From sequence record MZ234011.1: a stretch of DNA of 40,482 bases; one strand, written 5' to 3'. The stretch's first letter is position 1. The number at the start of each line of letters is the position of its first letter. The position numbers and the translations under genes were made by a program. Origin of the DNA: Escherichia phage vB_EcoP-22664UKE3-2. Shown here one piece after another: positions 1-40,482 of the stretch. Under the pieces are notes generated by a model that did no database searches, had not been told where the DNA came from, and saw only the letters and a list, made by a program, of their open reading frames with translations.

Positions 1-3000
1 ATGCAGGAACGAGAGGAGCGCTCTACGTGGTTCGGTTTCGGTGCGGCTACAGAAGCTGAAGTGAAGAACTCTATGGTCGGCGTGGCTATCCGCGCTGGTC
101 AGACCGAGGACTCACTTGATGTCATTGGCGATGTGTTCAACCCGACCCGCTGGAACAACCATAAGTGGTCTCGTGAGGAGCTAGACCAGATTCGTAACGC
201 TGGGGTTTTGCCTCAGTATTACGGAGTCATTACTGGTGGCTCTCCTCAGAACCTGACCGAGCTTATTAACTTGGCGCTTGAGAACCAGAAGTTGGACCAA
301 GAGAAGGCCAAGGCTGGGACTGGTGCTCAACTGGCGGCTGGTGTGATTGGTGCTGGCGTGGACCCTCTGACCTACGTTCCTATTGCTGGGCAGGTAGGTA
401 AAGGTGGTAAGCTAGTCAACAAGATGTTCACTGTGGCTGCTCAGTCTGGTGCTCTGGCTGGGGCATCCGAGATTGCTCGAACCTCAGTTGCTGGTGGGGA
501 CGCTCATGTTGCTGAAGCTATCCTTGGTGGCGCTCTCTTCGGTGGTGGCATGACTGCTATCGCTGATGGACTAGGCAGAGCCTTAGGTCGCAACACTAAT
601 GAGTTTGCTGGTCCAGCTACACGTTTGGAAGCTCGTGAGACAGCTCGTAACGTTGATGGTCAGGACCTGTCCCGTCTCCCTATTCAGGAAGGTGAGCAGA
701 CCTTTAGTCATCAAGGCGTTAAGTTCGCTGACGTTCCGAATGAGCCGGGAAGTGTACGATTAGAAGACGGTTCAATCCTGATTGGTGAGAACCCTCTGAA
801 CCCTAAGACACGTCAAGTCTTTGACGAAGTGATTGAGCCGGAACGTGCCGCTGCTGGTGTGAACCTTGGTGGACTTACCGAGATTGGCCTGAAGCTGCTT
901 CGGTCTGAGAACCCTGAGATTCGTGGAGTAGCTGCTGACTTAGTGCGTTCACCTACTGGTATGCAGTCTGGGGCCTCAGGTAAAATCGGGACAACTGCGT
1001 CAGACGTGTTCGAGAGACTTCGTTCTGTGGACCATCGGTTCTACAACGACATCGACGATGCGGTTACTGAGGCACTAAAGGACCCGTACTTCCAGACTGC
1101 ATTCTGGCGAGACTCTGGCGCATTCCGTCAGGACATCTACCAGCGTGTGTCTATGGCTATCGAAGATGGTAGCGGAAACCTGAAGGCTGAACTGACTCCG
1201 GGAGAACTGAAAGTCTATGACCTACTGAAGAACCAGTTCGACGCCAAGCGTGAGATGATGGAGAACCCAGCGATGTTTGGTCGTCCAGACGCTCAGTCTA
1301 TCTTTCCGGGTAGCCGCTTCAAGGGAACCTACGTCCCTCATGTGTATAGCAAACAGATGAAGGAGCTGTACATCAAGGAGCTTGGGAGTCCAGAGGCGTT
1401 GCAGGAGGCCATCAAGAAGTCATGGTTGACCAGCTATGCGTCTCGACCTGAAGTCAAGAAACGCGTGGACGAGGCACTTTTAGAGGCTGACCCTACGTTG
1501 ACTCCAGAAGGACTTGCGGCTGCGGTCGATAAGTACGCCAACGATAAGGCTTATGGTATCTCTCACACCGAGCAGTTCGAGCGTTCATCCGTAATGGAGG
1601 AGAACATCAACGGGCTGGTGGGTCTGGAGAACAACAGCTTCCTTGAGGCTCGTAACCTGTTCGATAGCGATATGTCAATCGTTCTTCCTAACGGTCAGAC
1701 CTTCAGTGTCAACAACCTGCGTGAGTGGGACATGGACAAGATTGTCCCGGCCTACAACCGTCGAGTTAATGGTGATATTGCTATCATGGCTGGTACAGGC
1801 AAGACCACGAAGGAAATGAAGGACTTAGTTGAGACCATGATGAACAAGGCTGGCGATGACGGAAAGTTGAAAGGTGAAGTATCTACCTTACGTGACACCC
1901 TGAAGATTCTCACTGGTCGTGCTCGACGTGATGGTGCTGATGATGCGGCCTTCGCTACCGTGATGCGCATGATGACAGACCTATCGTTCTTCGCTAAGAA
2001 TGCCTACATGGGTGTTCAGAACTTAACGGAGATTGGTGGTATGCTGGCTCGTGGTAACGTTCGTGCACTGCTACACGGAGTACCGATGTTCCGTGACCTA
2101 GCCTTCCGTAACAAGAAGGTCGGGGCCTCGGAGATTAAGGACCTGCATAATGTTATCTTCGGTAAAGAATTAGACGACTCAATCCGTCCGTCTAAACAGG
2201 ATGTTATCGACCGTCTGCGATCTTACAGTGACCTTAGTCGTGGTACAGCTACAGCTCTGGGGACTGCTAAGTATTACACTGGTGAACTTGTAGTACGCTC
2301 TCCGTTCACTAAAGTCCTCAACGGTACGACCAACTACCTGTTAGATGCTGGACGTCAAGGCTTCCTGTCTGACATAGTGGAGCATAGCCTGACTGGTAGT
2401 AAGCGTAAGTTCGATGACCGCTGGCTGAAGACCGCTGGTATATCTGACGAGCAGTGGAGTGGAATTAAGTCCCTAATCCGTGAGTCAGTGACTCGTGGGC
2501 CAGACGGGAAGTACACCATCAAGGATAAGAAGGCGTTCAGTCAGGACCCAAGGGCTATGGACCTGTGGCGTATGGGTGACACCATCGCTGACGAGACGTT
2601 ACTCCGGCCTCATAAGCTGTCAAACATGGACGCCAAGGCTTATGGTCCTCTCGCTAAGACTGTCCTTCAGTTTAAGAACTTCGTCATCAAGTCTATCAAT
2701 GGGAGAACCATGCGAACCTTCTATAACGCCACGAAGAACAACAGAGCGATTGACGCTGCACTGTCGACCGTGATGTCTATGGGTCTGGCTGGTATCTACT
2801 ACATGGCTCAGGCGCATGTCAAGGCTTATGCTATGCAGGATGGTCGAGACCGTGACTACCTTAAGCAAGCTCTGGACCCAACGATGATTGGCTATGCGGC
2901 CCTGTCCCGTAGTTCACATCTTGGTGGCCCACTTGGGGTAGCTAACATTCTGGGAGGCATCGCTGGATATGAGGACACTAAGATGCTCCGTTCGTCTATC

Positions 3001-3303
3001 CTACCTCGTTCTCCTACAGAGAAGCCTGAGCGTGCCATCGCGTATGGTGCAGCTACAAGTGACCCTGTGATGAATGTTGTTGGTAACTTCTTGGAGCAGG
3101 TTCCAGCTTTCGGATATGCTGCTAACGTTGGCGCTTCGGCTTACAACTTGGCTGGCTACCTCAAGGCTGATACTCGTGTCAACGAGCGTGACTACATGAC
3201 CGGGATGTATAATACGTTCCGTGAACTGGTTCCGAACGACCCCATTACCCAGAAGCTGCTGCTTGGAACGTTTGAGGAGCAAGGCATCCACATCAAGGAC
3301 TAA
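1..3303 (+). CDS. Internal virion protein D (T7 gp16), C-terminal 1100 aa; 5' part of the gene is at 39898..40482 (frame continuous across the window junction)
   Basis: Translation from base 1 (STWFGFGAATEAEV...TPTRWNNHKWSREELDQIR) aligns with an internal region of T7 gp16 as I recall it; combined length about 1295 aa matches gp16; position after gp15 and before the tail fibre. Confidence 0.9.
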   Translation: MQEREERSTWFGFGAATEAEVKNSMVGVAIRAGQTEDSLDVIGDVFNPTRWNNHKWSREELDQIRNAGVLPQYYGVITGGSPQNLTELINLALENQKLDQEKAKAGTGAQLAAGVIGAGVDPLTYVPIAGQVGKGGKLVNKMFTVAAQSGALAGASEIARTSVAGGDAHVAEAILGGALFGGGMTAIADGLGRALGRNTNEFAGPATRLEARETARNVDGQDLSRLPIQEGEQTFSHQGVKFADVPNEPGSVRLEDGSILIGENPLNPKTRQVFDEVIEPERAAAGVNLGGLTEIGLKLLRSENPEIRGVAADLVRSPTGMQSGASGKIGTTASDVFERLRSVDHRFYNDIDDAVTEALKDPYFQTAFWRDSGAFRQDIYQRVSMAIEDGSGNLKAELTPGELKVYDLLKNQFDAKREMMENPAMFGRPDAQSIFPGSRFKGTYVPHVYSKQMKELYIKELGSPEALQEAIKKSWLTSYASRPEVKKRVDEALLEADPTLTPEGLAAAVDKYANDKAYGISHTEQFERSSVMEENINGLVGLENNSFLEARNLFDSDMSIVLPNGQTFSVNNLREWDMDKIVPAYNRRVNGDIAIMAGTGKTTKEMKDLVETMMNKAGDDGKLKGEVSTLRDTLKILTGRARRDGADDAAFATVMRMMTDLSFFAKNAYMGVQNLTEIGGMLARGNVRALLHGVPMFRDLAFRNKKVGASEIKDLHNVIFGKELDDSIRPSKQDVIDRLRSYSDLSRGTATALGTAKYYTGELVVRSPFTKVLNGTTNYLLDAGRQGFLSDIVEHSLTGSKRKFDDRWLKTAGISDEQWSGIKSLIRESVTRGPDGKYTIKDKKAFSQDPRAMDLWRMGDTIADETLLRPHKLSNMDAKAYGPLAKTVLQFKNFVIKSINGRTMRTFYNATKNNRAIDAALSTVMSMGLAGIYYMAQAHVKAYAMQDGRDRDYLKQALDPTMIGYAALSRSSHLGGPLGVANILGGIAGYEDTKMLRSSILPRSPTEKPERAIAYGAATSDPVMNVVGNFLEQVPAFGYAANVGASAYNLAGYLKADTRVNERDYMTGMYNTFRELVPNDPITQKLLLGTFEEQGIHIKD

Positions 3304-3321
3304 ACTATCACTATAGGAAAC
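3299..3321 (+). promoter_or_regulatory. Phage RNAP promoter upstream of tail fibre gene (TAAACTATCACTATAGGAAA), predicted +1 near 3316
   Basis: Matches the window's recurrent 20-bp T7-type promoter core; overlaps the gp16 stop codon. Confidence 0.6.
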
Positions 3322-6277: not shown

Positions 6278-6537
6278 CGCAGATGGACTTAGAGAAGTTC
6301 CTCTTGATGCTGGATACAGAACGTGCTCGACTCATGCTGCAAGACTTGCGGGATGACACTAAGCGTTCACCTCAGCTCTACAACGCCATTGAGAAACTGC
6401 TTGCTCGACACAACTTTGTGTTAAGCAAGGTGTCTGTGGACGAGAAGACGCTGGCGGATATGGAGGCCTTGAACGCAGAGTATGATAAGGTGCTCTCCGC
6501 TACGGAAGATAATGACACTGGATACGGAGTACAGTAA
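6274..6537 (+). CDS. Terminase small subunit (T7 gp18-like)
   Basis: FLLMLDTERARLMLQDL...RSPQLYNAIEKLLARHNF resembles T7 gp18; start overlaps the holin stop (ATGA). Confidence 0.8.
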   Translation: MTQMDLEKFLLMLDTERARLMLQDLRDDTKRSPQLYNAIEKLLARHNFVLSKVSVDEKTLADMEALNAEYDKVLSATEDNDTGYGVQ

Positions 6538-6540
6538 GCG

Positions 6541-6586
6541 TTAGACTCAAGGTCATTACTATATGTAGTGGCCTTTATGGTTAACA
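6541..6586 (+). promoter_or_regulatory. Conserved RNA hairpin, family 2 (AGACTCAAGGTCAT...GTGGCCTTTATGGTTAAC); putative RNase III processing site before gene 18.5
   Basis: One of three copies of the same motif (also about 16553 and 23779); stem AAGGUCA/UGGCCUU requires a G-U pair so works only as RNA; position corresponds to T7 R18.5. Confidence 0.4.
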
Positions 6587-6638
6587 CTAACTAGTGGAGG
6601 AGACTCTACGTGAAATCCGATAAACCGGGAGGGCAACT

Positions 6639-7082
6639 ATGCTCGAATTTTTAAAGAGAGCGGCTCCGTGGTTACTTGCAGCAGTGATGTTTGCTGGTGG
6701 CTACCACACCGCTAACAATAAGTGGGAGGCTAAGGTAAATGCAGAATACACCTCGAATCTTAAGGCATCGGAGGATACAAGGCTTGCTGTCCAAGCTGAA
6801 GTCAACAAAGTGTCCAAACGGTTTCAGGACGAAATGTCCTCGCTGGAAGGCAGCACTGACAGGATTATTGCTGACCTTCAGTCTGACAATAAGCGGCTGC
6901 GCATCCGAGTCAAACCTACGAGTGGAACCACGCAAAGTGACGGTCGATGCGTCATTGATGGTTACGCCGAACTTGACGAACGAGATGCTAAACGTCTTAT
7001 CTCCATCGGACTGAAAGGGGACGCTTGGATTAAAGCACTACAGGATACTATCCGCAAACTTCAACAAGACAAGGAGAAATGA
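6639..7082 (+). CDS. Rz-like i-spanin (T7 gp18.5-like)
   Basis: MLEFLKRAAPWLLAAVMFAGGYH... with RIIADLQSDNKRLRIRVKPT and DERDAKRLISIGLKGDAWIKALQDTIRKLQ matching T7 gp18.5; N-terminal TM segment. Confidence 0.85.
   Translation: MLEFLKRAAPWLLAAVMFAGGYHTANNKWEAKVNAEYTSNLKASEDTRLAVQAEVNKVSKRFQDEMSSLEGSTDRIIADLQSDNKRLRIRVKPTSGTTQSDGRCVIDGYAELDERDAKRLISIGLKGDAWIKALQDTIRKLQQDKEK
6739..7014 (+). CDS. Rz1-like o-spanin lipoprotein embedded in +1 frame of Rz (T7 gp18.7-like)
   Basis: Embedded ORF with lipobox LTISGCAS and C-terminus VDASLMVTPNLTNEMLNVLS resembling T7 gp18.7; exact start uncertain. Confidence 0.7.
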   Translation: MQNTPRILRHRRIQGLLSKLKSTKCPNGFRTKCPRWKAALTGLLLTFSLTISGCASESNLRVEPRKVTVDASLMVTPNLTNEMLNVLSPSD

Positions 7083-7519
7083 TGCTCAGTGATTCGTATT
7101 TCTATGATGAGTCCAGTAAGTCTGGCCTGAAGTCCCTGCGTTCTGGTAAGGATGTGGGGTGTGTGGGAAACCACGGGTATTATCAGGTAGGAACTCGACG
7201 TCATGGACTCCTGCTGGCCCATAGAGTCGTCTGGGAGCTAACCAACGGTCCTATACCAGAAGGGATGGAGATTGACCATATCGACCGCTGCCGGACTAAC
7301 AACAGGCTGGACAACCTCCGGCTAGTTACTTCAAGCGAGAACTCCTGCAACACCTCAGGACATTCTGACTCAAAGACTGGAGTTAAGAACATATCGTTCC
7401 ATCAGAATGGCTACGCTATCGAGGTCATGCGTAAGGGGGTCCGTATGCGAACAACACGTCCTACTTTAGAGGAGGCTATCTCTGTCCGGGACCTAATGCT
7501 GGAGGGACTCTATGTCTAA
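7079..7519 (+). CDS. HNH homing endonuclease
   Basis: [56 protein letters not shown] is a typical HNH motif; sits between Rz and large terminase where T7 has no gene; overlaps terminase start. Confidence 0.75.
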
Positions 7520-21530: not shown

Positions 21531-21743
21531 ATGATTAAACTTATTGAATTTCTGGGTCGTCTGGTTGTGCGTGGCTATTCTCGTGCTGCGAGTGTGGAAC
21601 GAAAAGTCGCATCTGCTGCGGCTAAAGGTGCGGAAGCGGCTGCTGCGGAAGCGGATAGTCTGCGCATCAAGTCTCTGGACGCTGGCCTACGTGCCAAAGG
21701 TCTTGACAAGAAAGCCGAGCAACTGAAAGGCTTCTTCAGCTAA
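21531..21743 (+). CDS. Hypothetical protein (70 aa), Ala/Lys-rich
   Basis: ORF with RBS AAGGAGA upstream. Confidence 0.5.
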   Translation: MIKLIEFLGRLVVRGYSRAASVERKVASAAAKGAEAAAAEADSLRIKSLDAGLRAKGLDKKAEQLKGFFS

Positions 21744-21761
21744 ACTATCACCTTAGGGATG
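21739..21761 (+). promoter_or_regulatory. Degenerate promoter-like sequence (CTAAACTATCACCTTAGGGATG)
   Basis: Upstream half matches the promoter core but -4/-3 are changed (CACCTTAGGG vs CACTATAGGG); activity doubtful. Confidence 0.3.
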
Positions 21762-21806: not shown

Positions 21807-21885
21807 GTCTCCATAGCTCAAACGGTAGAGCGGCGGGTCGTGATGGCCTATTGCGATTAGGGTTCGAATCCCCGTGGAGACGCCA
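21807..21885 (+). tRNA. tRNA-like element (degenerate; possible pseudo-tRNA or tRNA-like structure)
   Basis: Perfect 7-bp acceptor stem GTCTCCA/TGGAGAC, D-arm GCTC-AAACGGTA-GAGC, canonical T-loop TTCGAAT in GGTTCGAATCC, discriminator G then CCA; I could not fold a clean anticodon stem and the middle is about 3 nt long. Confidence 0.35.
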
Positions 21886-21896
21886 CTAAGGAGTGA

Positions 21897-23776
<1,880 letters not shown>

Positions 23777-36075: not shown

Positions 36076-36098
36076 CCTTAACTATCACTATAGGGACT
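36076..36098 (+). promoter_or_regulatory. Phage RNAP promoter (CCTTAACTATCACTATAGGGACT), phi13-like, nested inside an inverted repeat
   Basis: Full promoter core; flanked by AGGGCCTATAG (36060-36070) and CTATAGGCCCT (36097-36107). Confidence 0.6.
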
Positions 36099-37181: not shown

Positions 37182-39464
37182 ATGGCTAGTAATATTGAAT
37201 CAGCTCTGGCTAATCGGACTATGGGTCGTGGCAGGGCTCCGGGTAAAACTATCGCCGTCAACTATCAAGCAGCCAGCGTTCAGGCTCCAACTGGTGACTC
37301 AGGTCTTGCTCGGGCGTTAACCAACTTCGTTGAGTCTGGTACTGGATTATACAAGCAGTTCAAAGACGAGGAGAAGACACGGGCCGACGAGCGGTCTAAC
37401 GAGATTATCCGTAAGCTGACACCTCAGCAAAGACGTGAGGCTATCCAGAACGGTACATTGCTGTATCAGGATGACCCTTACGCTATGGAAGCACTTCGAG
37501 TCAAGACGGGCCGTAACGCTGCCTTTGCGGTTGATGACGAGATTAACGTTAAGATTCAGAACGGTGAGTTCCGTACACGTCAGGACATGGAAGAGTATCG
37601 CCACCAGAGACTTCAGGACGCCGCTAAGTCCTATGCTGAAGAGGCGGGTATTAACCCTACCGACGAGTTCTTCCAGCGCGGGTTCAACGATAACATCACA
37701 GACCGAAACATCGCTATCTATGGGTCTTTCAATAAGTATTTCAGCAAGCAGTCTGAAGAGACAGCAATGTTGAACACTCGTATTGAGATGAACTCGTTCC
37801 TTAACGATGGGGACCTGATGCGTTCGCCTGAGTCTGGAAAGACCTTCATGGCCTACCTTCGGGATGGACTGACGACTGCTGCTATCCCTTCTGACCAGCG
37901 AGCACGAGAGGTAATCACCCAGACGGTCCGTGACGCAATCCAGAAGTCAGGAGGCTCAAGCTTCCTACAGCAAGTCCGTGGCGAGCGTATCACCCTTAAC
38001 GGTATTGATGCTACCATCGAAGAGATTGTAGGCCCTGACGTCTTCAATGCTGCTGTGGTTGAGGCTCAAGGTACCGAGTACAAGTTGGTGGCTAAGTATC
38101 AGGAAGACTTATCGTTAGGCGTTCAGTCTGCGATTCTTCAGGACGACCCAACCATCGGTCTGGCCCAGATTCAGAAACTCAAGGAGCAGAACAACCTGCT
38201 TCAGCCGGGGGAAGAACTCACGCCTCAGCGTCAGATGCTTATTAATGCCGAAGCCAGCTTACTGGAAGCGGTCAAGCGTAAGTCTGCTGAACAGGCGAAG
38301 GAGAACACTAAGTTAATCCAGACTCAGAACAAGCAACTGGTCATCGACCAAGTGTATCAGCGACGTCTGGCTGGGGACAACGTGTCCACCAACTATGAGG
38401 ACCTTCCGGTCTCTGAAGCTACAGGAGAGTTCAAGCGTTCAGACATGAACAACTATGCGTCTGCAAAGCTACAGCAGATTGACCAGATGGACATCCCTGA
38501 GGCTGCTAAGGACGCTCAGAAGGTGGCATTGTTAAGAGCTGACACTAACAACGGTCCGTTCCGTAATGCATTCCAGACGCTTACTCAGGACGCTGCTGGT
38601 GAGTGGCAAGCTGCGGTCATCCGTGGACAGTACGACCCAGACAAGATGCAACGCTTCGAGTCTCTTCGTCGTGCCTACACTCAGGACCCTTCAAGTTTTG
38701 CTGCTCTGTATCCTGACCAAGCTCAGTTGTTCTCTACGTTCGACCAGATGGACAAGATGGGTCTGGACCCTCAGACGATGATTGAAGCTGATAAGCAAGC
38801 TGCAAGTCAAAGCCGTGAGATGCGCATGGAGTCAGACAAGGCGTGGCAGGAGCTGAAGAACGACTCCAAGAACACCCAGTTGTCTCGCCTCCCAACGTCT
38901 CTGGACTCAAGTGCTCGTAAGGTATGGGACTCATGGTACTACCGTACAGGTAACGCTGATGCTGCAACTCAGCAGACTCAACGATGGCTGAATGAAAATA
39001 CCGTAACGTTCCAGTCTGAAGGTTCTGACGGTAAGTCCATCGGCATGGTGTCAAAGCACCAGCTTATGGTCGGGGATAACCCAGAGTCGTGGCAGGTTGG
39101 TCGAGACATTATCGACACCGCTCGTAAGCAGCTCATTAAGGCCAACCCTTGGGTAGTGAACTCTCAGTTGTCCGTTGTTGAACAGAACGGCTCTATCTTC
39201 CTCCAAGACGCTACAGGGACTATTCGTATTCGCTACGATAAAGAACTTGTAGGTAAACTCTACCGCGAACAACAGCAGAAGGCACAAGATGCCGCATACG
39301 CTCAGGCAGAACGTGACGCTAACAAGCGAGCGCGTATCGTCAGGACTAAAACTGCTGGTGACAAACGTCGAGCTGACCGAGAGGCCAACATCGAGAAGCG
39401 CGGAGGGATGTACAATGACGTCTCATTGGAGGGTATCGCAAACGTACTAATCGGTAAGGAGTAA
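37182..39464 (+). CDS. Internal virion protein C (T7 gp15-like)
   Basis: 760-aa ORF at the gp15 position and size; RBS AGAGGAGG upstream. Confidence 0.9.
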   Translation: MASNIESALANRTMGRGRAPGKTIAVNYQAASVQAPTGDSGLARALTNFVESGTGLYKQFKDEEKTRADERSNEIIRKLTPQQRREAIQNGTLLYQDDPYAMEALRVKTGRNAAFAVDDEINVKIQNGEFRTRQDMEEYRHQRLQDAAKSYAEEAGINPTDEFFQRGFNDNITDRNIAIYGSFNKYFSKQSEETAMLNTRIEMNSFLNDGDLMRSPESGKTFMAYLRDGLTTAAIPSDQRAREVITQTVRDAIQKSGGSSFLQQVRGERITLNGIDATIEEIVGPDVFNAAVVEAQGTEYKLVAKYQEDLSLGVQSAILQDDPTIGLAQIQKLKEQNNLLQPGEELTPQRQMLINAEASLLEAVKRKSAEQAKENTKLIQTQNKQLVIDQVYQRRLAGDNVSTNYEDLPVSEATGEFKRSDMNNYASAKLQQIDQMDIPEAAKDAQKVALLRADTNNGPFRNAFQTLTQDAAGEWQAAVIRGQYDPDKMQRFESLRRAYTQDPSSFAALYPDQAQLFSTFDQMDKMGLDPQTMIEADKQAASQSREMRMESDKAWQELKNDSKNTQLSRLPTSLDSSARKVWDSWYYRTGNADAATQQTQRWLNENTVTFQSEGSDGKSIGMVSKHQLMVGDNPESWQVGRDIIDTARKQLIKANPWVVNSQLSVVEQNGSIFLQDATGTIRIRYDKELVGKLYREQQQKAQDAAYAQAERDANKRARIVRTKTAGDKRRADREANIEKRGGMYNDVSLEGIANVLIGKE

Positions 39465-39466
39465 AC

Positions 39467-39916
39467 ATGAAGAACGGGACAGCCAGTGAGAGACTGGCAG
39501 AACTGTCAGTAGCTGAAGAGTCTGGCTGTATCCGATTCACAGGCCACTTAGACGGAGAAGGATACGGAAGGATAATGGTGGCTAGGGTTAAGTATATGGC
39601 ACATCGTCTCTCCTACTCCATAAATAAGGGGCCAATACCAGATGGCTATGTTGTTAGGCATAAATGTGATAATCCATCATGCATAAATCCTGAACACCTT
39701 GAAGTAGGAACGCAGGCTGACAACATTGCAGATAAGGTATCCAGAGGCCGACAGGCAAGAGGTAGTGGAGCAGGCAGAGCTATACTGACAGAGGAATCTG
39801 TTAGGGAAATACGCTCCAGTCCATTAAAAGTATCTGAGCTTTCCACCTTATACGGGGTAAGCGTCGTTTCCATACGAAATATATTGAGGAGAAAGACATG
39901 GCAACACGTGGCGTAA
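39467..39916 (+). CDS. HNH homing endonuclease inserted between gp15 and gp16
   Basis: GCIRFTGHLDGEGYGRIMVARVKYMAHRLSYSINKGPIPDGYVVRHKCDNPSCINPEHLEVGTQADN is a classical HNH motif; overlaps the gp16 start by 19 nt. Confidence 0.8.
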   Translation: MKNGTASERLAELSVAEESGCIRFTGHLDGEGYGRIMVARVKYMAHRLSYSINKGPIPDGYVVRHKCDNPSCINPEHLEVGTQADNIADKVSRGRQARGSGAGRAILTEESVREIRSSPLKVSELSTLYGVSVVSIRNILRRKTWQHVA

Positions 39917-40482
39917 GGAACGCAAATCCGGGCAATATCCGTAAGTCCAAAGACCAGTGGGAAGGTGCTATAGGCGATGATGGTGCATTCGTTATCTTCG
40001 ACAGTCCTGAATCTGGGGTCCGAGCATTAGCGAAAAACCTTCAAAGCTACGGTCGCCAAGGTTATGACTCTATCGAGAAGATTATCAACAGATGGGCACC
40101 TCCGAGCGAGAACGACACTCAGTCCTACATCGACTCGGTTGTATCTGCTACTGGTATTCCTGCAACTCAAAGTCTCGACCTATCTGACCCTGACACCCTG
40201 TCTTCTCTGGCACAAGCTATCAGCTTCCATGAGACAGGCTCACGGTACGACCCTGAAGTCTATCAGAAGGGAGTCGCACGGGCACTCAACGGCATTAGCC
40301 CAAAGACTCCACCAGTAAGCGCTAACGTATTTGACGCACTCACGGAAGGACTCAAGTCTAAACCTAAAGTAGCTCTGGGTGAGAACCTTCCGACCGCTGC
40401 TGGTCTTAACATTGAGGGTCAAGCACCTGAAGCTCCCAACGAATCGTTCGGTGAGATGTTCTATAAGTCTACTGGCGAGACC
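39898..40482 (+). CDS. Internal virion protein D (gp16), N-terminal 195 aa; continues in frame at window position 1
   Basis: ORF runs off the window end with no stop; its last residues (...FGEMFYKSTGET) and the first residues of the window (MQEREERSTWFGF...) are contiguous relative to T7 gp16 (...WETHGETLDEYNSRSTFFGF). Confidence 0.85.
   Translation, partial: MATRGVRNANPGNIRKSKDQWEGAIGDDGAFVIFDSPESGVRALAKNLQSYGRQGYDSIEKIINRWAPPSENDTQSYIDSVVSATGIPATQSLDLSDPDTLSSLAQAISFHETGSRYDPEVYQKGVARALNGISPKTPPVSANVFDALTEGLKSKPKVALGENLPTAAGLNIEGQAPEAPNESFGEMFYKSTGET

Follow-up and report, generated by a model that had tools for sequence, protein, structure and literature searches.

The HNH gene that we consider here, at positions 39467..39916 of Escherichia phage vB_EcoP-22664UKE3-2, has a described counterpart in Citrobacter phage CR44b, where gene 7.7C (YP_009007181) is annotated as "predicted homing endonuclease / HNH endonuclease." Like the gene here, 7.7C encodes 149 aa, is flanked by genes 15 and 16 and overlaps the latter by 19 nt, and the two proteins share 83.8% aa identity. 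Counterparts are found at the same gp15/gp16 locus in about 20 other Kayfunavirus records (ST20, CHRF_10022, PH1061, EPr2, TM1, GA2A, Ro45lw, and others), with aa identities from 54.7% to 100%; they differ only by sequence divergence and by mosaic recombination within the ORF. The gp15/gp16 HNH gene is thus already known, in that the same locus is annotated as a homing endonuclease in public records. Mosaicism in T7-like phages is well known to arise in part from HNH homing endonuclease genes (HEGs), and the present gene is a clean but ordinary example.

A more distant relative is T7 gp7.7 (130 aa, annotated as an HNH endonuclease), which is 47.7% identical to the protein here over residues 21-148 (86% of the protein; E=9e-23). 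Read directly from the T7 locus, gp7.7 shares the HNH_3 core, the C-terminal helix-turn-helix (HTH), and the C-terminal end RKTW-R-H-I; it differs in lacking about 20 N-terminal residues and in lying between genes 7.3 and 8 rather than between genes 15 and 16. At its 3′ end, gene 7.7 likewise runs up to or into the beginning of an essential gene (gene 8, at TAATG), but the overlap is only 1-4 nt compared with 19 nt here. To our knowledge, T7 gp7.7 has no known target or activity, and a literature search found no experimental characterization of the gp15/gp16 HNH locus or of T7 gp7.7 activity. The T7 protein is dispensable and can be deleted (PMC9825161).

Among solved structures, the best full-length match is I-HmuI of phage SPO1 (PDB 1U3E; Foldseek prob 1.00, 146 aligned columns), which shares the layout of an N-terminal beta DNA-binding region, a His-Me finger, a helical linker, and a C-terminal HTH, at 17% sequence identity and a TM-score of 0.34-0.39. 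I-HmuI is encoded by an intron in a DNA polymerase gene and nicks one strand, whereas the HNH gene here is free-standing. I-HmuI also lacks a Cys/His zinc-type loop; the C67/C72/H77 loop of the HNH protein instead resembles that of I-PpoI.

In their genomic setting, T4 SegG and MobE and the HEGs of ICP1-like phages, the latter at recombination boundaries, are similar: they are intergenic nuclease genes adjoining essential genes. The T4 free-standing and ICP1-like HEGs are reported to be polymorphic among relatives and to move with coconversion of flanking markers (PMC2790892; PMC10448857). They belong to families different from the HNH_3 protein here, SegG and the ICP1 HEGs being of GIY-YIG and T5orf172 type and MobE an HNH of another branch, and their activity has been demonstrated, whereas that of the gp15/gp16 HNH is inferred only. 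Closer to hand is the Kayfunavirus HEG between the Rz-like and terminase genes (7079-7519 here; ORF48 of Hafnia phage Ca), also of HNH_3 type and overlapping both of its neighbors. It shows presence/absence polymorphism of about 400-430 nt, as is seen at gp15/gp16, but differs in its locus and its C-terminal half, and its similarity to the gene here is marginal.

Genomic setting of the HNH gene

The window (the whole stretch of DNA analyzed, 40,482 nt) is the entire genome of vB_EcoP-22664UKE3-2 (MZ234011.1; Kayfunavirus, Escherichia phage). gp16 leaves the window at its end and resumes at 1..3303, and the joined ORF is intact at 1295 aa with one terminal stop; the window is therefore a circularly permuted complete genome. 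The features needed here are as follows.

36080..36096, + strand: phage RNA polymerase promoter upstream of gene 13, an exact match to the consensus AACTATCACTATAGGGA
37182..39464, + strand: gp15 (internal virion/core protein C), 760 aa, from the ORF list and homologues annotated as gp15 (CR44b and others)
39467..39916, + strand: HNH ORF, 149 aa, with an ATG start and a TAA stop at 39914-39916, from Pfam and PHROG matches
39898..40482 (N-terminal 195 codons), then 1..3303, + strand: gp16 (internal virion protein D), from homologues annotated as gp16
[quoted passage not shown]

The left flank of the insertion is gp15, with its TAA stop at 39462-39464, and the right flank is gp16. The initial annotation had placed an HNH gene between them with a 19-nt overlap into gp16, and both points agree with the PF13392 match at 39467-39916, the gp16 ATG at 39898, and the HNH stop ending at 39916. 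The gene is free-standing: it is intergenic, outside any intron or intein, and gp16 is uninterrupted. An Rfam scan of the gp15-gp16 region gave no match and no intron was found in the window; a Pfam search of gp15 and of the gp16 N terminus, with the library copy used, returned no domain.

For transcription, we took as consensus AACTATCACTATAGGGA from the promoter annotated in CR44b; it has 11 sites in the genome, compared with 0.12 expected by chance. The closest promoter 5′ of the HNH gene is that at 36080..36096, and the following one is at 3303-3319, after gp16. The search found no phage promoter within or adjoining the HNH cassette, and sigma-70-like and terminator-like matches for the cassette were at or below chance. 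Lacking a promoter of its own, the cassette should therefore be transcribed late from the gene 13 promoter, together with genes 13, 14, 15, and 16.

The gene had been described as the second of two unrelated HNH genes. The sole other HNH gene in the genome is indeed that at 7079..7519, but "unrelated" overstates the case, as both belong to PF13392, though very divergent. A pairwise comparison of the two proteins detects only 9/22 identities (BLASTP E=2e-5, phmmer E~3e-4), and on this basis the two genes are distant members of the family with different C-terminal halves and not recent duplicates. The 7079..7519 gene is likewise present in some relatives and absent from others, and it segregates independently of the gp15/gp16 cassette. 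In Hafnia phage Ca, a homologous 397-bp indel was found within a single stock, and loss of this HEG was linked to a plaque-size phenotype (PMC8861465).

Family and fold of the HNH protein

The HNH ORF matches Pfam HNH_3 (PF13392) over aa 43-86 (E=1.2e-13; 50.9 bits compared with a gathering cutoff of 24.8), matches zf-His_Me_endon only below threshold, and matches the PHROG HNH families with a best E of 1.5e-34. The motif CDNPSCINPEHL that had been the basis for calling an HNH gene lies at aa 67-78. Across a family alignment of 68 sequences, H65, C67, D68, C72, H77, G81, N86, and R95 are invariant and H46, R47, N69, N74, and P75 are at least 90% conserved, and the protein here has kept all of them. 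By analogy with I-HmuI, H65 would be the general base and N86 a metal ligand.

An AlphaFold2 model (mean pLDDT 94.3) gives the same layout, with an N-terminal beta region, a His-Me finger core, and a C-terminal HTH (about aa 105-148). In the model, residues 62-65 and 78-81 form strands and residues 83-92 a helix, giving a beta-beta-alpha-metal fold; the HTH helices are at 109-117, 122-129, and 133-140. The best PDB folds found by Foldseek, I-HmuI, I-PpoI, and Smad MH1, are all His-Me fingers, with weak E values of 1e-3 to 1e-2; a PDB sequence search with the protein gave no match at E<=1. The low TM-scores to I-HmuI (0.34-0.39) are to a structure in an extended, DNA-bound conformation.

The protein ends in RRKTWQHVA, and the family consensus is RKTWxH[VI] followed by 0-1 residues; across 62 family members from other loci, W is found in 60/62, H in 51/62, and V, I, or L in 60/62. 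Compared with homologues at the same site, dN/dS is 0.05-0.26, and synonymous divergence (dS) is saturated between HNH subtypes, with flanks that are ~97% identical. These comparisons indicate that the ORF is under purifying selection. Most copies of the gp15/gp16 HNH gene are intact at exactly 149 aa. The source record, MZ234011.1, labels the product a "hypothetical protein," a label that can be corrected.

Distribution among relatives and the case for homing

Two further features were defined by comparison with relatives.

39467..39897, + strand: inserted cassette, 431 nt, starting at the HNH ATG and ending immediately ahead of the gp16 ATG, from alignment of HNH+ and HNH-less junctions
39898..40197, + strand: HNH-linked divergent tract at the gp16 5′ end, from identity to HNH-less close relatives

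An alignment of the junction across relatives, the check proposed in the initial annotation, reveals a clear insertion polymorphism of 429-432 nt, located exactly between the gp15 stop and the gp16 ATG. The cassette is absent in 21/24 IMG/VR relatives; among 207 GenBank records it is present in about 23, corresponding to about 20 distinct phages, and absent in about 184. Homologues of 39467..39916 are also found in many metagenome contigs. The GC content of the cassette is 46.2%, versus 51-52% in the flanking genes.

Left of the cassette, gp15 is 96-98% identical to that of HNH-less relatives right up to the stop codon. To the right, the divergent tract is 62-76% identical to HNH-less close relatives, compared with 96-98% for gp15 and >=94% deeper in gp16; its core is gp16 nt 1-150 (39898-40047), with weaker divergence to about nt 300. 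HNH and gp16 nt 1-150 occur together on both group-1 and group-2 backbones, with sharp boundaries. Ro103C3lw is 96-100% identical to the HNH-less L021 in gp15 and 100% identical from gp16 nt 151 onward, but its gp16 nt 1-150 are 57-72% identical to L021 and 90-94% identical to vB_EcoP-22664UKE3-2; PhiNW-B1 shows the same pattern. Since the cassette carries the first ~150-300 nt of gp16 with it, this region can mislead phylogenies and complicate the engineering of Kayfunavirus therapy candidates.

Decayed and possibly emptied loci are also seen. A pseudogene with a 1-nt deletion is present in at least 24 contigs, and the empty sites of HC13, Esher7, and phiYIO1-1 keep the HNH-linked gp16 allele. 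phiYIO1-1 has G6/T9 along with the ATAAGA signature, and short-range recombinants therefore exist. We considered HC13 as proof of precise loss of the HEG and rejected this, since the phiYIO1-1 recombinant allows an ancestral empty allele as well. Loci with and without the gene, frameshifted copies, and empty sites with an HNH-linked flank together form an unusually clean natural series suited to a homing experiment in an easily handled coliphage. With a module found on different backbones, with decayed copies and empty sites that retain the linked flank, and with another HNH gene segregating independently, sequence comparisons support the initial suggestion of homing endonuclease traffic.

From the family assignment, the model, and this distribution, 39467..39916 most likely encodes a free-standing homing endonuclease, one that falls in the T7 gp7.7-like branch within the HNH_3/His-Me-finger family. 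We imagine that, when the phage coinfects a cell together with an HNH-less relative, the HNH enzyme would nick or cut the empty junction. Based on conservation only, the best candidate target would be the region surrounding AAGGAGTAA-N4-5-ATGGCGACTCGTGGTATTCGCAA, a block without variation among HNH-less genomes; the 23-mer ATGGCGACTCGTGGTATTCGCAA is found exactly in 21 HNH-less loci and in 0 HNH+ loci and is absent from vB_EcoP-22664UKE3-2. Recombinational repair off the HNH+ genome would then copy the cassette into the cut genome. The repair might resolve beyond about gp16 nt 150, carrying the nt 1-150 tract along, because gp16 nt 16-150 are variable and nt 151-225 are conserved. A distant downstream cleavage site, as for SegG, was considered as the source of the ~150-300-nt gp16 tract and dropped: the tract ends where the conserved block at nt 151-225 starts, and crossovers would resolve there anyway. 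In the searchable literature, no cleavage, nicking, or biased inheritance is reported for this HNH protein, T7 gp7.7, or any member of the locus.

The same nuclease could instead be domesticated or beneficial to the phage, in competitor exclusion, degradation of host or rival DNA, or DNA processing, with its patchiness due to ordinary gain and loss. Strong purifying selection over saturated synonymous divergence is in line with such a role, as are the late expression and cotranscription with virion genes that the promoter map suggests and the plaque-size phenotype of Hafnia phage Ca upon loss of its other HEG (PMC8861465). We nevertheless regard a beneficial role as unlikely, given that about 90% of close relatives thrive without the gene, that frameshifted copies persist in many contigs, and that homologues of the gp15/gp16 HNH occupy many different and unrelated positions in other Autographiviridae, as is typical of selfish HEGs. 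The gene is dispensable: it is missing from about 90% of relatives, and deletion of T7 gp7.7 is tolerated (PMC9825161). Competitive exclusion in particular is no true rival to a homing endonuclease, since free-standing HEGs act that way.

Coinheritance of cassette and flank does not by itself speak for homing, as plain linkage or ordinary recombination in a mosaic region would yield the same pattern. One could therefore envision a passive passenger, its nuclease inactive or nonspecific, spread by ordinary homologous recombination at a gp15/gp16 mosaic hot spot. Recombination is free among T7-like phages, the mosaic structure of gp15 and gp16 is plain to see at these loci, and PhiNW-B1 gp15 changes backbone about 300 nt before its end; moreover, the right tract boundary coincides with the conserved block at gp16 nt 151-225, and local sequence conservation alone accounts for it. 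Inert copies should decay, however, and while some did, most are intact at the full 149 aa, with the catalytic and zinc-ligand positions all intact and a dN/dS of about 0.1; a passenger of this kind is quite unlikely. Finally, a spurious ORF or an annotation artifact of the permuted assembly junction, which might be raised because the permutation falls inside gp16 and the source record says "hypothetical protein," is already refuted by significant domain matches and a confident structure model, by recurrence of the same ORF in about 20 independently sequenced phages and many metagenome contigs, and by dN/dS, the permutation point lying 566 nt downstream of the HNH ORF.

Fit between the cassette and gp16

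Four further features lie in or beside the cassette.

39456..39461, + strand: Shine-Dalgarno sequence AAGGAG within the final gp15 codons, from junction alignments
39472..39538, + strand: potential mRNA stem beginning 3 nt after the HNH AUG, in which 39472-39486 pairs with 39522-39538
39886..39891, + strand: new Shine-Dalgarno sequence GAGGAG for gp16, inside the HNH coding sequence, read from the sequence
39898..39916, + strand: dual-coding overlap of 19 nt, covering gp16 codons 1-6 (M A T R G V)

In HNH-less relatives, the Shine-Dalgarno sequence at 39456..39461 serves gp16 and is followed by the gp15 stop TAA, the spacer, and the ATG; in HNH+ genomes the same elements stand in front of the HNH ORF. 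The spacer variants that follow the gp15 stop, cata, taaca, and taata, each occur in HNH+ as well as HNH-less genomes, and the left boundary of the cassette is therefore the ATG. As read from these alignments, the cassette took over the RBS, spacer, and ATG position used by gp16 where the HNH gene is absent. For gp16 itself, the sequence at 39886..39891 lies 6 nt upstream of its ATG, and GAGGAG or AAGGAG is found there in 15/15 HNH+ loci.

The overlap, in the +1 frame, encodes the HNH C terminus, (T)W Q H V A plus the stop, and the gp16 ATG is embedded in the HNH Thr-Trp codons. At every one of the 15 HNH+ loci, gp16 nt 9 is A (giving His), TAA or TGA is found at nt 17-19, and the gp16 Arg7 codon is AGR, not CGC. 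The codon choices of gp16 are ones that permit the overprinted HNH C terminus (T-W-x-H-V) and its stop. The overlap had been taken to suggest a constraint on the insertion site; dual coding, with the conserved HNH C terminus lying over gp16 codons 1-6, explains it better. We also considered whether the HNH-linked "synonymous" changes at gp16 nt 6-21 reflect target-site immunity and rejected this, since HNH coding needs suffice: the changes are not independent evidence of immunity because the HNH protein needs the His, the stop, and a compensating Arg codon.

The gp16 start ATGGCGACTCGTGG already reads W-R-L-V in the +1 frame, and the HEG may have been captured via microhomology between its own 3′ end ACATGGnnnCACGT and this gp16 start.

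The potential stem at 39472..39538 has an MFE of -31.8 kcal/mol (z=-3.49), and 0/200 shuffles fold as well. The RNAalifold consensus has 15 pairs, kept by 9-10 of 10 sequences, with 0 compensatory changes, and the stem sequence is invariant even between HNH subtypes with only ~55% aa identity. The stem is a possible translation attenuator; it is unproven because all 15 pairs lack compensatory changes. The invariant first ~33 nt of the ORF and the stem may act in cis as such an attenuator, keeping nuclease dosage low with gp16 translation still coupled. Taken jointly, overprinting, microhomology capture, and an attenuator would make the cassette finely coadapted with gp16, beyond a passive insert, a combination that we put forward tentatively and think somewhat doubtful as a whole.

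The dual-coding overlap illustrates how a selfish gene can sit at the start of an essential gene and leave its protein sequence and translation signals undisturbed. An analogous 17-nt overlap, on another gp16 N terminus, is found in a phage of another genus, Przondovirus vB_VIPKPNMC04.

The gp15-gp16 cassette and its product

The window covers the entire, circularly permuted genome of a K1F-like T7-family phage, genus Kayfunavirus. Its ends (1 and 40482) both fall inside gene 16, and several MZ2340xx sister records stop at the same point; this permutation point has no biological meaning and follows a convention of assembly or deposit. The gp16 gene starts at 39898, runs past the window end and continues through 1..3303 as a single uninterrupted ORF of 1295 aa. 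Over 38900-40482, the closest GenBank entries are Kayfunavirus PDP21P1 (97.7%) and T147P5 (97.0%). The junction contains the following features.

39462-39464, + strand, gp15 stop codon (TAA), followed by two bases (AC) and the HNH ATG
39467..39916, + strand, HNH ORF, 149 aa
39886-39891, + strand, GAGGAG ribosome-binding site for gp16, brought by the cassette
39898, + strand, ATG at the start of gp16
39914-39916, + strand, HNH stop codon (TAA), inside gp16
7079..7519, + strand, other HNH_3 gene, between the Rz-like gene and the terminase large subunit

In the source record the HNH protein is labeled "hypothetical protein 22664UKE3-2_060" (100% identical). The initial annotation had placed it in the HNH family by a motif, CDNPSCINPEHL, which is indeed present, and the protein matches Pfam HNH_3 (PF13392) at 50.9 bits (cutoff, 24.8) as well as several PHROG HNH families. 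A six-frame scan bore out the claim of a second HNH gene in the genome, finding one other, at 7079..7519. Describing the two as unrelated was too strong, since both are PF13392 members; they are nevertheless no recent duplicates, as a single local match with 9/22 identities is all that they share. The gene at 7079-7519 has 4 nt in common with the Rz-like gene and 8 nt with that for the terminase large subunit. Among relatives it is, in turn, an ~430-nt presence/absence polymorphism, segregating independently of the gp15-gp16 cassette (MZ234022 has the former without the latter).

T7 gp7.7, which T7 can dispense with (PMC9825161), shares 47.7% identity with the HNH protein across 86% of the latter. 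Relatives were found in 1,288 phage records (tblastn, E<=1e-8), at varied positions in Autographiviridae: beside ligase, endonuclease I, DNA polymerase, gene 8 and elsewhere. Eight residues (H65, C67, D68, C72, H77, G81, N86 and R95) are invariant in a 68-sequence family alignment. With the family alignment as input, AlphaFold2 gave a model with a mean pLDDT of 94.3, for which the top solved-structure matches were homing endonucleases, I-HmuI (full length, probability 1.00) and then I-PpoI, with weak E-values and TM-scores; a sequence-only search of the PDB with the protein gave no match.

Alignment of the junction in relatives with the cassette (HNH+) and without it (HNH-less) shows the cassette's anatomy at the nucleotide level and upholds the proposed insertion polymorphism. 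HNH-less genomes read ...GGTAAGGAG TAA cata ATGGCGACTCGT..., with gp16 beginning 3-5 nt past the gp15 stop; HNH+ genomes have 431 nt extra, from the HNH ATG through the base preceding the gp16 ATG. The cassette is missing in 21 of 24 IMG/VR relatives, and among 207 GenBank records matching the region, 23 (~20 distinct phages) have the 149-aa HNH here, at 54.7-100% amino acid identity. Spacer variants between the gp15 stop and the next ATG (cata, taaca and taata) are common to empty genomes, before gp16, and occupied ones, before HNH, and thus the left boundary of the mobile unit is the ATG itself. The AAGGAG ribosome-binding site that serves gp16 in HNH-less genomes is used by HNH here. GC content is 46.2% in the cassette versus 51-52% in the flanks.

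In kind and in place, the cassette is already known: Citrobacter phage CR44b has the identical arrangement, annotated as gene "7.7C, predicted homing endonuclease" with an HTH noted, and other records call the same-locus gene "HNH endonuclease" or "HNH homing endonuclease." Differences in presence of homing endonuclease genes are routinely reported for T7-like phages (PMC4925675), and for the other such Kayfunavirus gene, that at 7079-7519 in the window, a homologous 397-bp indel has been published from within one stock of Hafnia phage Ca (PMC8861465). The location of these genes at genetic-exchange boundaries is an established concept (PMC10448857; PMC2790892). No experimental work on the gp15-gp16 HNH locus was found in the literature searched. 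What we add is the exact anatomy of the cassette, a dual-coding account of the overlap, the co-transferred tract with its boundary, and a catalogue of decayed and emptied alleles.

Dual coding at the gp16 start

The 19-nt overlap reported initially is correct, running from the gp16 ATG at 39898 to the HNH stop. In the family alignment, the C terminus at other loci (62 sequences) has the form R-K-T-W-x-H-[VI] plus 0-1 residues, with W in 60/62, H in 51/62 and V/I/L in 60/62; T7 gp7.7 ends ...RKTWRHI*. The window has T W Q H V A *, encoded by ACA TGG CAA CAC GTG GCG TAA; the gp16 start codon falls within those for Thr and Trp, and HNH reads gp16 codons 1-6 in the +1 frame. In that frame, the common allele of HNH-less genomes would give T W R L V V F A I T I R V T S G *. 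The 15 HNH+ loci examined all have A at gp16 nt 9 (synonymous in gp16, but replacing Leu by His in HNH), TAA or TGA at nt 17-19, and AGR rather than CGC for gp16 Arg7, a substitution required to preserve Arg when C19 is replaced by A. All three are missing in 21/24 HNH-less loci examined (Fisher p, uncorrected for shared ancestry, 3e-8 for the stop codon and 5e-9 for the nt 9 A). Judged from these alignments, the overlap is mechanistically explained by dual coding of the HNH C terminus and the gp16 start. We had considered the HNH-linked gp16 substitutions as independent evidence of target immunity and rejected this, because dual coding accounts for them.

Klebsiella phage vB_VIPKPNMC04 (Przondovirus; locus L046, 2471-2878) has a 135-aa HNH relative, 37% identical, also between gp15 and gp16. 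Its overlap with gp16 is 17 nt, the codons for its conserved ...A-Y-V-H-L-Q* end contain the gp16 ATG, and its gp16 N terminus differs from that of the window. The overprinting architecture has arisen there too, on a different gp16 N terminus.

Movement, selection and decay

Up to its stop codon, gp15 of the window is 96-98% identical to that of HNH-less close relatives; gp16 nt 1-150 are just 62-76% identical, with mixed values to ~nt 300 and >=94% identity beyond. Ro103C3lw, compared with the HNH-less locus L021, is 96-100% identical in gp15 until ~100 nt before the stop and 100% identical from gp16 nt 151 onward, but its gp16 nt 1-150 are only 57-72% identical to L021 and 90-94% identical to the window. 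PhiNW-B1 has the same pattern of backbone and tract. These comparisons show the gp16 5′ tract moving with the cassette onto a different backbone. The right-hand boundary of the tract coincides with a generally conserved gp16 block at nt 151-225 (mean majority-base fraction, 0.90-0.96 versus 0.74-0.86 at nt 16-150), the expected resolution point of homologous exchange, and we therefore dropped the idea of a distant cleavage site downstream in gp16.

The best-supported reading, and in our judgment a probable one, is that the cassette is a free-standing homing endonuclease gene. We infer that the enzyme would cleave the empty gp15-gp16 junction and that repair would then copy the cassette into the cut genome. 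The best candidate target is a block that does not vary across HNH-less genomes from either backbone group; the 23-mer ATGGCGACTCGTGGTATTCGCAA has exact copies in 21 HNH-less loci but in neither the window nor any HNH+ locus. The sequence comparisons show the anatomy and polymorphism of the cassette, co-transfer of its flank, selection and decay.

Several HNH subtypes occupy the junction (window; CR44b; PH1061/LNA5; Ro103C3lw; TM1/GA2A/Ro45lw). Between subtypes dS is saturated (about 1.6-1.8), on backbones ~97% identical, and the ORF is mosaic, the window being identical to CR44b over the first ~100 nt and falling to ~70% identity or lower thereafter. The dN/dS is 0.05-0.26, and each copy so examined is exactly 149 aa. 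That the nuclease is beneficial or domesticated seems to us unlikely; that the cassette is a passive passenger of ordinary recombination seems slightly less likely still. An artefactual ORF is very unlikely.

Inactivated copies exist. In ~39-kb ENA metagenome contigs (L043-L045, 1501-1931), a 1-nt deletion at ~codon 90 (GATAAGGTG to GATAA-GTG) truncates the protein at residue 90; it recurs in at least 24 contigs. This version is a decaying copy: although inactivated, the cassette keeps its length and the ribosome-binding site for gp16. Single assemblies show several more frameshifted C termini. HC13 (L041/L007), Esher7 (L048) and phiYIO1-1 (L047) lack HNH but have the gp16 5′ allele linked to it, with both the embedded TAA stop and the AGR codon for Arg7; they are either cassette-loss products or descendants of the first-invaded allele. 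In phiYIO1-1, HNH-less nt 1-14 are joined to a ZH4-type tract from nt 15, which implies either repeated loss or exchange within a very short stretch of homology. Taken together, the alleles span the stages expected of a homing endonuclease life cycle: empty, occupied, degenerate, and emptied with a linked (presumably resistant) flank.

P0048, from a 627-nt ENA contig, is a chimeric HNH. Its C-terminal half is nearly the same as in the window protein, its N-terminal 65 aa are unrelated, and the two parts meet at the conserved VVRHKCDNPSCINPEHL motif. This suggests that HNH genes shuffle domains at the catalytic motif.

Expression context and other features

Scanning the window with a CR44b-derived consensus gave 11 phage-promoter sites. 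Those nearest HNH are at 36080, upstream and before gene 13, and at 3303, after gp16, which puts HNH on a late 13-14-15-HNH-16 message. At its 5′ end, the ORF is nearly invariant for ~33 nt (39467-39499) between subtypes of ~55% amino acid identity, as is the CTGGCTGT block (39522-39538); the family N terminus is not conserved at the protein level. From 3 nt past the AUG, 39472-39486 can pair with 39522-39538 (z=-3.49). Pairing potential is retained in 9-10 of 10 sequences, in which no pair had compensatory changes. It is possible, if unproven, that this stem is a translation attenuator.

Two further features lie elsewhere in the genome.

21807-21885, + strand, tRNA-like gene: ARAGORN tRNA-Thr (anticodon CGT); Rfam tRNA, 36.7 bits (gathering score, 29)
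6535-6587, + strand, ~50-nt stretch with a hairpin, AAGGTCATTAC-TATATG-TAGTGGCCTT, directly 3′ of the gene 18 stop codon

The tRNA-like gene, between a promoter-like site (21743-21759) and the gp4 primase/helicase ORF (21900..23600), seems an unusual feature in an unusual place for a T7-like phage. The 6535-6587 stretch recurs at ~90% identity in many Autographiviridae records from Klebsiella, Serratia and Yersinia, where its record coordinates vary widely, and looks like a conserved RNA-processing (RNase III-type) hairpin.
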